Shown: one piece after another, positions 285-3,519 of the stretch | Numbering within the stretch: the stretch's first letter is position 1 | Layout: each line of letters starts with the position of its first letter | Source of the DNA: Escherichia coli | GTDB lineage: Bacteria > Pseudomonadota > Gammaproteobacteria > Enterobacterales > Enterobacteriaceae | Length of the DNA stretch: 64,000 bases | Assembly (NCBI RefSeq): GCF_003018235.1 | Contig: NZ_CP027437.1 | Strand: one strand, 5' to 3' | Position numbers and translations under genes: made by a program | Notes under the pieces: model-generated | Databases searched by the model: none | What the model saw: the letters and a program-made list of their open reading frames with translations, nothing else | Told to the model about the DNA's origin: nothing

Positions 285-422
285 TAATTGCGGAAAACGA
301 TAAAATAGCATTCCCAGGATATCTTTATTTGCCGCCGCTGTCAGCGAACATGCTATCCTTTATAAGAATTTACTTATTACGTTGAGATAATTGCCACCCG
401 CAATTGTATGGACAGATAATTA

Positions 423-1841
423 ATGCATGTACAGCCCATTTCAACTTTCCGTTTGTTCCAGGAAGGTCATCTGCTACGTAATAGCATCGCTATTTTTGCG
501 CTAACCACGCTGTTCTATTTTATTGGTGCAGAGTTACGGCTGGTTCACGAACTTTCTCTTTTCTGGCCGCTGAATGGCGTAATGGCGGGGGTGTTTGCCC
601 GCTATGTCTGGCTTAATCGACTGCATTACTATGCGATCAGTTATGTGGCAATGCTGGTTTATGATGCCATAACCACCGAATGGGGGCTGGTTTCACTGGC
701 TATCAATTTCTCCAATATGATGTTTATTGTTACCGTCGCCTTACTGGTCGCGCGGGATAAGCGTCTGGGGAAAAATAAGTACGAGCCAGTAAGTGCCTTA
801 CGGCTATTTAATTACTGTCTGATTGCCGCATTATTATGCGCTATTGTCGGGGCGATTGGTTCGGTCAGTATTGATAGTCTGGATTTCTGGCCTTTGCTTG
901 CCGACTGGTTCAGTGAGCAATTCTCAACGGGCGTGTTGATAGTGCCTTGTATGCTGACGTTGGCAATTCCTGGAGTGCTGCCGCGCTTTAAAGCAGAACA
1001 GATGATGCCCGCTATCGCGCTTATTGTGTCGGTTATTGCCTCGGTAGTCATTGGCGGAGCGGGGAGTCTGGCGTTCCCGCTGCCTGCATTAATCTGGTGT
1101 GCAGTGCGCTATACGCCGCAGGTAACATGTCTGTTGACCTTTGTCACCGGTGCGGTGGAAATCGTACTGGTGGCAAATTCGGTGATTGATATCTCGGTCG
1201 GTTCGCCATTCTCCATTCCAGAAATGTTCTCCGCACGTCTCGGTATTGCCACGATGGCGATATGCCCAATTATGGTTTCTTTTAGCGTGGCAGCGATCAA
1301 TTCGCTAATGAAGCAAGTTGCGCTGCGAGCCGACTTTGATTTTCTGACTCAGGTTTACTCACGGTCCGGTCTTTATGAGGCGCTGAAAAGTCCATCGCTG
1401 AAACAGACACAACATCTGACTGTCATGCTGCTTGATATCGACTATTTCAAAAGTATTAACGATAACTATGGACATGAATGTGGCGATAAAGTGTTAAGCG
1501 TGTTTGCAAGGCATATTCAGAAGATTGTCGGTGATAAGGGGCTGGTGGCACGAATGGGCGGCGAAGAATTTGCTGTTGCAGTGCCATCGGTGAATCCTGT
1601 CGATGGTCTGCTAATGGCGGAAAAAATCCGTAAAGGCGTTGAACTGCAACCGTTCACCTGGCAACAAAAAACGCTTTATCTCACGGTAAGTATTGGCGTC
1701 GGTAGTGGTCGCGCATCGTACCGAACGCTGACCGATGACTTTAATAAATTGATGGTCGAAGCCGATACGTGTCTGTATCGCTCGAAGAAAGATGGGCGCA
1801 ACCGTACCAGCACTATGTGTTACGGTGAGGAAGTTGTCTGA
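423..1841 (+). CDS. dgcF: Membrane-anchored diguanylate cyclase (GGDEF domain, GGEEF motif)
   Basis: 472-aa ORF; N-terminal multi-TM region then GGDEF domain with RMGGEEF. Start codon uncertain. Confidence 0.85.
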   Translation: MHVQPISTFRLFQEGHLLRNSIAIFALTTLFYFIGAELRLVHELSLFWPLNGVMAGVFARYVWLNRLHYYAISYVAMLVYDAITTEWGLVSLAINFSNMMFIVTVALLVARDKRLGKNKYEPVSALRLFNYCLIAALLCAIVGAIGSVSIDSLDFWPLLADWFSEQFSTGVLIVPCMLTLAIPGVLPRFKAEQMMPAIALIVSVIASVVIGGAGSLAFPLPALIWCAVRYTPQVTCLLTFVTGAVEIVLVANSVIDISVGSPFSIPEMFSARLGIATMAICPIMVSFSVAAINSLMKQVALRADFDFLTQVYSRSGLYEALKSPSLKQTQHLTVMLLDIDYFKSINDNYGHECGDKVLSVFARHIQKIVGDKGLVARMGGEEFAVAVPSVNPVDGLLMAEKIRKGVELQPFTWQQKTLYLTVSIGVGSGRASYRTLTDDFNKLMVEADTCLYRSKKDGRNRTSTMCYGEEVV

Positions 1842-2067
1842 CATCTTTATTCATTCAGAGCGATTTAAATGCAATGTGTTCTACCACTTTATGATCCAAG
1901 AAAAGGCGTTTTTCCTCGATTAAACCATGATCCGCGCCACACTTTTCTCATAAAACTGCTCATTAATCATCAGGAGTTGATCAAAACAGGGGTTCGGCGT
2001 ATTAAAGTTTGCTAACCTGTCGTACCAATTCAAACAGGTTGTATGACTAATCAGAAGGGAACCCATT

Positions 2068-3519
2068 GTGAAAACACTAAATCGTCGCGATTTTCCCGGT
2101 GCACAGTATCCAGAACGTATCATTCAGTTTGGTGAAGGTAACTTCCTGCGCGCCTTTGTTGACTGGCAAATCGATCTCCTGAATGAGCACACCGATCTGA
2201 ATTCTGGCGTGGTCGTTGTTCGTCCGATTGAAACTTCATTCCCGCCGTCACTGAGCACGCAGGATGGTCTGTATACCACCATTATCCGTGGCCTGAATGA
2301 GAAGGGTGAAGCGGTCAGCGACGCGCGTCTGATTCGCTCGGTTAATCGTGAAATCAGCGTCTACAGTGAATACGATGAATTCCTGAAACTGGCGCATAAC
2401 CCGGAAATGCGCTTTGTTTTCTCTAACACCACCGAAGCGGGTATCAGCTACCATGCGGGCGATAAATTCGATGACGCGCCAGCGGTAAGTTATCCGGCAA
2501 AACTGACCCGTCTGCTGTTCGAACGTTTTAGCCATTTCAACGGTGCGCTGGATAAAGGTTGGATCATCATCCCGTGTGAGTTGATCGACTACAATGGCGA
2601 CGCGTTGCGTGAACTTGTGCTGCGCTATGCGCAAGAGTGGGCACTACCAGAAGCATTTATTCAATGGCTGGATCAGGCTAACAGCTTCTGTTCTACGCTG
2701 GTGGACCGTATCGTTACCGGCTATCCGCGTGATGAAGTGGCTAAACTGGAAGAAGAACTGGGTTATCACGATGGTTTCCTCGACACCGCTGAACACTTTT
2801 ACCTGTTTGTGATTCAGGGGCCGAAATCCTTAGCGACTGAGCTGTGCCTGGACAAATATCCACTCAACGTGCTGATTGTTGACGATATTAAACCGTACAA
2901 AGAACGCAAAGTGGCAATCCTCAACGGTGCGCACACCGCGCTGGTGCCGGTGGCGTTCCAGGCAGGGCTGGATACCGTAGGTGAAGCGATGAACGATGCT
3001 GAAATTTGCGCATTCGTTGAAAAAGCCATCTACGAAGAAATTATTCCGGTACTGGATTTGCCTCGTGATGAACTGGAATCTTTCGCCAGTGCAGTCACCG
3101 GACGTTTCCGTAACCCGTACATCAAACATCAGTTGCTATCTATCGCCCTCAACGGTATGACCAAGTTCCGCACCCGCATCCTGCCGCAACTGCTGGCAGG
3201 GCAGAAGGCAAACGGCACACTTCCGGCGCGCCTGACTTTCGCATTAGCGGCATTGATTGCGTTTTATCGCGGTGAGCGTAATGGAGAAACATATCCGGTA
3301 CAGGACGATGCACACTGGCTGGAACGTTATCAGCAACTCTGGAGCCAGCATCGTGACCGTGTTATCGGTACCCAGGAACTGGTAGCGATTGTGTTGGCAG
3401 AAAAAGACCACTGGGAGCAGGACCTGACGCAAGTGCCTGGTCTGGTCGAGCAGGTGGCTAATGACCTGGATGTGATTCTCGAAAAAGGAATGCGCGAAGC
3501 TGTACGTCCGTTGTGCTAA
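2068..3519 (+). CDS. uxaB: Altronate oxidoreductase (tagaturonate reductase)
   Basis: 483-aa ORF matching UxaB throughout ([30 protein letters not shown]...); GTG start with AAGGGA SD upstream. Confidence 0.95.

Follow-up and report, generated by a model that had tools for sequence, protein, structure and literature searches.

The perfect inverted repeat AACCTGT-N13-ACAGGTT in the promoter region of uxaB probably lies at the junction of two adjacent ExuR-type boxes, here called P1 and P2, and would not itself be a single operator; the half-site geometry and the conservation of the two boxes argue for this reading with good confidence. Genetic evidence for control of uxaB by ExuR dates back to about 1980. 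The initial annotation of the repeat relied on ExuR repression of uxaB, in agreement with the literature (PMC8612250, PMC5934670); the regulation is already-known biology, and the proximal site that overlaps the segment has already been compiled. The idea of an ExuR operator was right for the region, which does carry ExuR-type operator sequence, and wrong on which symmetry matters, the AACCTGT/ACAGGTT dyad not being the operator. Where two pseudo-palindromic boxes adjoin, a perfect inverted repeat can arise beside a repressed gene as their by-product, and operator calls are better based on the half-site geometry of the regulator family than on the longest dyad.

Published sites, weight matrix and comparative loci

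ExuR, which represses the hexuronate (exu) regulon, belongs to the FadR subfamily of the GntR family. The operators of the FadR subfamily are A/T-rich palindromes with TKGT/ACMA boxes, in which GT and AC are separated by 3 nt in ExuR sites and by 2 nt in UxuR sites (Suvorova, Korostelev & Gelfand 2015, PMC4494728). In the available part of supplementary file 2 of that paper (data in RegPrecise), the ExuR sites of b1521/uxaB are GGAAGTTGTCTGACATCTTTA and ACAGGTTGTATGACTAATCAG, and the second, proximal one (P2) is tabulated for b1521, CKO_01541, KPN_01640, EFER_1553, SF1572 and SSO_1607, the last five being the uxaB orthologues of C. koseri, K. pneumoniae, E. fergusonii, S. flexneri and S. sonnei. 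These "curated" sites are predictions from comparative genomics, not footprints. Full-text search of the accessible literature with the site sequences yielded no relevant hit.

A position weight matrix was built from 49 unique ExuR 21-mers published in the available part of the table, uxaB sites excluded, and was used to score both strands of the window, i.e., the whole 64,000-nt stretch of DNA that was analysed (~128,000 positions). The training sites themselves score between 10.7 and 26.5 bits, with a median of 23.0. An 18-bp even palindrome (AAATTGGTATACCAATTT) was also tried as a yardstick and pointed to 2014–2031 and 1873–1890, but it has the UxuR-type spacing and was replaced by the ExuR matrix. 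Conservation was assessed in 80 uxaB loci of Enterobacteriaceae (83–98% protein identity), which are related sequences, so that the counts given below are not counts of independent events.

The three highest matrix scores in the window all fall upstream of uxaB (boxes D1, D2 and P1), P2 ranks sixth, and at least 10 bits are reached at just four positions in the 64 kb. The features of the region are the following:

423–1841, plus strand: GGDEF diguanylate cyclase gene (dgcF/yneF homologue, 472 aa), upstream of uxaB
1829–1849, plus strand: D1, distal ExuR box, GGAAGTTGTCTGACATCTTTA, a compiled site in the available table; 17.9 bits, the top score of the window
1871–1891, minus strand: D2, distal ExuR-type box, TAAAGTGGTAGAACACATTGC; 16.9 bits, rank 2
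1977–1995, plus strand: conserved block, TTGATCAAAACAGGGGTTC, at least 90% conserved in 80 loci, over the predicted −35 region
2010–2018, plus strand: extended −10-like element, TGCTAACCT (TGnTAnnnT), predicting a start near 2025
2012–2032, minus strand: P1, ExuR-type box, TGAATTGGTACGACAGGTTAG; 14.8 bits, rank 3 of ~128,000
2014–2020, plus strand: left arm AACCTGT of the repeat, the weaker, promoter-side half-site of P1, overlapping the predicted −10 hexamer
2034–2040, plus strand: right arm ACAGGTT of the repeat, the 5' flank of P2 and the start of its left half-site, within ACAGGTTGTATGACTAATCAG
2034–2054, plus strand: P2, ExuR box, ACAGGTTGTATGACTAATCAG, the compiled comparative-genomics site for uxaB; 9.8 bits, rank 6
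2055–2059, plus strand: Shine-Dalgarno-like AAGGG, 8 nt before the GTG, conserved
2068–3519, plus strand: uxaB, tagaturonate reductase, GTG start, 483 aa (NCBIfam NF002969, 807 bits)

The fourth position with at least 10 bits, and the sole one outside the uxaB upstream region, is 14338–14358 (10.75 bits, AAAAGGGGTTTAATAAACTTC), in the gap between the ORFs 12529–14121 and 14651–18202; it is probably a chance match.

The inverted repeat and its two arms

The repeat reported at 2014–2040 was confirmed by reading the sequence, by a repeat finder and by a pattern search: AACCTGT (2014–2020) and ACAGGTT (2034–2040) are complementary at 7/7 positions, the 13-nt spacer between them is cgtaccaattcaa, and the distance from the end of the repeat to the uxaB GTG at 2068, given earlier as about 30 nt, measures 27 nt. 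A perfect 7/7 repeat adjoining the promoter of an ExuR-repressed gene is what suggests an operator in which a dimer, of ExuR/UxuR or of another regulator, would touch each arm with one of its subunits. In further support, K-12 MG1655 shows no difference from the window across the aligned 2003–2079, repeat included, and the repeat is kept in E. whittamii and in one Citrobacter amalonaticus strain. We nevertheless regard such an operator as very improbable, for reasons of chance, conservation and geometry.

When the intergenic region 1842–2067 was shuffled 2000 times with dinucleotides preserved, a perfect 7-nt inverted repeat with a 3–20 nt spacer occurred in 24% of the shuffles (mean 0.34 per shuffle). 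The whole 64-kb window holds 173 such repeats, i.e., 0.61 per 226 nt, and the repeat finder returned two further ones within the 226-nt uxaB intergenic region itself, so that the AACCTGT/ACAGGTT repeat is at chance level; the zero expectation obtained from the pattern search applies to the exact 14-base pattern only and not to inverted repeats generally.

The repeat is also poorly conserved. In the register of the repeat, the arms of the 80 loci are complementary at 7/7 positions in 2, at 6/7 in 5, at 5/7 in 12, at 4/7 in 5 and at 0–3/7 in 56 (1–3/7 in 55), and no compensatory changes (covariation) between the arms were seen across the 80 orthologues. The perfect form is limited to Escherichia and a few Citrobacter, and even within Escherichia/Shigella it is broken, the right arm reading ACGGGTT in S. 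flexneri and GCGGGTT in Escherichia sp. (L001). In the left arm, conservation of 90% or more is limited to A2014, A2015, T2018 and T2020; C2016, C2017 and G2019 of the window are minority variants and the majority left arm is AAGTTAT. In the right arm CAGG-T is kept and A2034 is the base found in just 10–20% of the orthologues. Replacing the three minority bases by the majority ones (C2016G/C2017T/G2019A) abolishes the repeat, yet P1 then scores 19.2 bits instead of 14.8. A change of ACCA (2024–2027) to AGGA, in contrast, brings the P1 score to 0.

The geometry is likewise at odds with a dyad operator, since GT and AC are 13 nt apart in the repeat vs. 3 nt in ExuR and 2 nt in UxuR sites (PMC4494728), and the arms fall in different boxes (P1 centred at 2022, P2 at 2044). 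The comparison with compiled sites that had been proposed as a check on the repeat goes partly against it: the proximal site in the available table (2034–2054) overlaps the right arm only, and its centre lies 17 bp from that of the dyad (2044 vs. 2027).

The same complementarity could act at the RNA level, as a 5'-UTR hairpin (AACCUGU/ACAGGUU) affecting the stability or translation of uxaB mRNA, and the minimum-free-energy fold of 2008–2075 does pair both arms. The energy of this fold is ordinary, though (z = −0.65, with 54/200 shuffles folding as well), the 80 loci give no covariation, a search of Rfam returned no match at E-values up to 1, and a start near 2025, as predicted, would leave the left arm untranscribed. 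A functional hairpin is in our opinion extremely unlikely.

Because of its chance frequency, its poor conservation and the fact that both arms are accounted for by two separate boxes, the perfect repeat is best read as a coincidence, particular to one lineage, between one P1 half-site and the conserved P2 flank CAGGTT. In the Escherichia/Citrobacter lineage the outer P1 half-site would have changed from AAGTTAT to AACCTGT, which by chance complements the CAGGTT flank of P2 and would thus have created the 7/7 repeat.

Two tandem ExuR-type boxes, P1 and P2

On the plus strand P1 reads AACCTGT-cgt-ACCAATT (core span 2014–2030, centre 2022), and with cTGT (2017–2020) and ACCA (2024–2027) on either side of cgt it has 7/8 positions of the TKGT-N3-ACMA core and the 3-nt gap of ExuR sites. 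The left arm of the repeat is its weaker half-site. The strong one is the ACCAATT (2024–2030) that had been pointed out in the spacer, an ExuR half-site that reads TTGGT on the other strand. The P1 score is inside the training range (minimum 10.7, median 23.0). In 74/80 Enterobacteriaceae loci P1 scores 10 bits or more, in every case with its start between −55 and −60 and with the strand unchanged (median 16.6, maximum 25 bits), and ACCAAT (2024–2029) and TGTATGACTAAT have at least 90% column conservation vs. 40–60% in the neighbouring columns. The reverse complement of P1 is AGATTGGTGTAATAACTTA or similar in Enterobacter, Kosakonia, Kluyvera, Klebsiella and others, which is nearly the uxaC operator.

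P2 reads AGGTTGT-atg-ACTAATC (core span 2036–2052, centre 2044), and its TTGT (2039–2042) and ACTA (2046–2049) likewise match the TKGT-N3-ACMA core at 7/8 positions. Its score is slightly under that of the weakest training site (10.7 bits). At least 8 bits are reached in 55/80 orthologues (median 8.7), and 2035–2052 is mostly conserved at 80–90% or more, position 2039 being T or C. P1 outscores P2 in the window and in most orthologues, and the two are offset by 22 bp in 57 loci and by 21 bp in 18 (75/80 altogether). On the K-12 genome P1 corresponds to about 1610716–1610736 and P2 to about 1610694–1610714.

With centres 22 bp apart, i.e., about two helical turns, the boxes would let two ExuR dimers sit next to each other on the same side of the helix. 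With the predicted start near 2025, P1 (centre at about −3) would lie over the −10 element and the start site, P2 (centre at about +20, from about +10 to +30) over the early transcribed region, and ExuR on these boxes would obstruct RNA polymerase until an inducer derived from a hexuronate frees the operator. The matches, their ranks and their conservation are direct observations, from which we infer ExuR occupancy, cooperativity, the start site and a steric mechanism.

P1, although the higher-scoring and more widely conserved box, is seemingly missing from the published list: in the available part of the ExuR table neither P1 nor D2 is among the b1521 entries (PMC4494728). The omission of P1 possibly reflects one-strand reporting (gene strand only) with an asymmetric matrix. 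This absence is one of the points in favour of P2, together with distal D1, being the only working ExuR operator, with P1 conserved through its overlap with the core promoter (−10, discriminator and start); TGnTAnnnT, itself conserved, falls on the left half of P1, and ACCAAT lies at the predicted start site. Against this stand the higher scores of P1 and its near identity with the uxaC operator in many genera. In addition, the −10-like element is kept in loci without ACCAAT, and ACCAAT is therefore dispensable for it. To our knowledge, start-site regions are also not normally conserved to a 6-mer that fits a repressor half-site. We thus judge it unlikely that P2 and D1 act without P1.

The left half of P1 does overlap the predicted −10 hexamer, and the conservation of A2014, A2015 and T2018 can therefore not be assigned to ExuR alone. 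Whether ExuR truly binds P1 would be the main residual doubt about the tandem arrangement, given the absence of the box from the table and the position of its left half on the predicted −10.

Promoter context of uxaB

The extended −10-like element is proposed on the basis of conservation only: TGnTAnnnT occurs between −75 and −40 in 81/81 loci, nearly always at −57 to −63 from the start codon, and the five P1-less loci (Franconibacter, Siccibacter and Buttiauxella among them) retain it. A strict sigma-70 scan of the uxaB upstream region gave no promoter. An alternative pair, TTGATC-N17-TATTAA (1977–1982 and 2000–2005), is specific to E. coli/Citrobacter and would give a start near 2012. With that start both boxes would lie just downstream, and either geometry is predicted to suit steric repression or a roadblock. 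No experimental start site of uxaB was found in the sources covered; the SMRT-Cappable-seq data have no uxaB entry, and Kim 2012 has b1521 in an orthologue table only. A reporter fragment corresponding to window 1765–2066 (uxaBp::lux, Rothe 2013) was induced 3–14 fold by galacturonate or glucuronate (PMC3578941).

The ORF 2068–3519 is annotated as uxaB in E. coli genomes, and window 1500–2500 is matched by 5417/5426 complete E. coli genomes. Regarding the upstream gene, K-12 MG1655 lacks the 498 bp at window 358–855, so that the 5' part of the GGDEF gene is missing there, and the protein has 472 aa in the window vs. 315 aa in the DgcF annotated in K-12.

A CRP site was also considered. The best matches (1926–1941 and 2040–2055) have 7/10 specified positions and are poorly conserved across genera; the match at 1926–1941 (minus strand) is a weak CRP-like TGTGGCGCGGATCATG that is semi-conserved in Escherichia only.

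Comparison with related operators

The ExuR operators of the exu regulon (uxaC, AAATTGGTGTGATAACTTT; exuT, AAAGTTGTATGACAAGTTA; exuR, AAAGTGGTATAACAAATAT; PMC4494728) share with the uxaB boxes the TKGT-N3-ACMA core within an A/T-rich pseudo-palindrome of 19–21 bp, and they belong to the same regulon and pathway (galacturonate to tagaturonate to altronate). Most genera have a P1 identical to the uxaC operator at 16/19 positions, and GTTGTATGAC is common to P2 and the exuT site. Unlike these operators, P1 of E. coli has one weakened half-site (cTGT; ACAGG in place of ACAAn or ATAAC) and a C at the centre position that is usually T, and P2 has a weak right half (ACTAATC). The uxaB boxes differ further in standing in tandem, 22 bp apart, and in that one of them, P1, does not figure in the compiled list as far as it is available.

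We also considered that P1 and/or P2 could be bound not by ExuR homodimers but by another regulator of the FadR subfamily, i.e., UxuR, an ExuR-UxuR heterodimer, FadR or a further member. ExuR and UxuR are paralogues for which interchangeable site binding has been reported (PMC11806353), and uxaB is derepressed in the transcriptome of a uxuR deletion (PMC10016265). The UxuR operator of the uxuR promoter (AAATTGGTATACCAATTT; PMC8092373) has TTGGT/ACCAA half-sites as well, and ACCAATT fits its right half. P1 matches this box at 12/18 positions, P2 at 9/18, but the half-site gap is of the 3-nt ExuR type in P1, P2, D1 and D2 and not the 2 nt of UxuR, a spacing that speaks against the UxuR-type operator proposed in the initial annotation. 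Moreover, genomic SELEX with UxuR alone gave a single target, gntP/uxuA (PMC5934670).

Concerning FadR, its 17-bp operators of the CTGGT-N3-ACCAG type have the subfamily architecture and the 3-nt gap, and sites such as AACTGGTCGTACCACAA bear a superficial likeness to the plus strand of P1 (AACCTGTCGTACCAATT). In contrast to them, P1 has CTGT where FadR sites have TGGT, ExuR-type flanks (AA...TT) and a position upstream of a hexuronate gene, not a fatty-acid gene. The fadB FadR site, ATCTGGTACGACCAGAT, was compared by eye, and P1 matches it at just 9/17 positions. FadR as the P1 binder was set aside on the mismatch at key positions in spite of the resemblance to tabulated sites. Taken over all its members, occupation of P1 or P2 by such a regulator appears decidedly improbable to us, and ExuR stays the preferred candidate.

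Distal boxes and P1-less loci

D1 overlaps the stop codon (1839–1841) of the upstream GGDEF gene and is 42 bp from D2. In Escherichia and Citrobacter, homologues of D2 lie at about −200 to −230 with scores of 12–23 bits. It is mainly in these two genera, where P1 is weaker, that distal boxes reach 10 bits or more (Spearman −0.30, a correlation confounded by phylogeny). In the P1-less loci the operator appears to have moved while the −10-like element stayed in place.

Among these loci, Buttiauxella (L080) has neither P1 nor P2 and carries a 26.6-bit ExuR box at about −115, immediately 5' of the conserved TTGATC block; in Franconibacter and Siccibacter (L063, L071, L074 and L076) P1 is missing and only a weak P2-like box is present.

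A KdgR-like block over the predicted −35 region

The conserved block at 1977–1995 was scored with the KdgR pattern AATRAAAYRNYRTTTYATT. On K-12 this pattern gave 16/18 for kdgK, 17/18 for kdgT, and 18/18 and 16/18 for kduI. It is matched at 14/18 positions or more in 46/80 orthologues, and most Enterobacteriaceae read AAAACAGGGTTTCA, a majority block that is identical at 13/14 positions to the core of the KdgR-type box of K-12 kdgT (AAAACAGCGTTTCA). The placement over the −35 is typical of a repressor. Unlike a proper KdgR box, the copy in the E. coli window is degenerate (less than 13/18), its right half having decayed. No description of uxaB as a KdgR target was found in the accessible papers; from the conservation of the block, uxaB may be under KdgR control in many enterobacteria.

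A broader picture can be offered tentatively, as a possibility that we hold to be well short of even. P1 would be the principal ExuR operator, stronger and more widely conserved than P2 though absent from the accessible compilation, and would form with P2 a tandem pair over the −10 and the start. A KdgR-type box would cover the −35 in most Enterobacteriaceae, and in Escherichia/Citrobacter this box and P1 would have weakened while D1 and D2 appeared. If true, a single uxaB promoter would answer both the hexuronate signal (through ExuR) and the downstream KDG signal (through KdgR). The promoter may then exemplify compact dual ExuR/KdgR control in enterobacteria, which could be of some use for hexuronate biosensors.

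Two of the loci stand out by their titles. One, titled Chryseobacterium sp. (L064), has an Enterobacteriaceae-type uxaB locus with 86% identity, which suggests contamination or mislabelling, and another, titled E. coli (L072), has an upstream region nearer to that of E. whittamii (L002) than to that of K-12.
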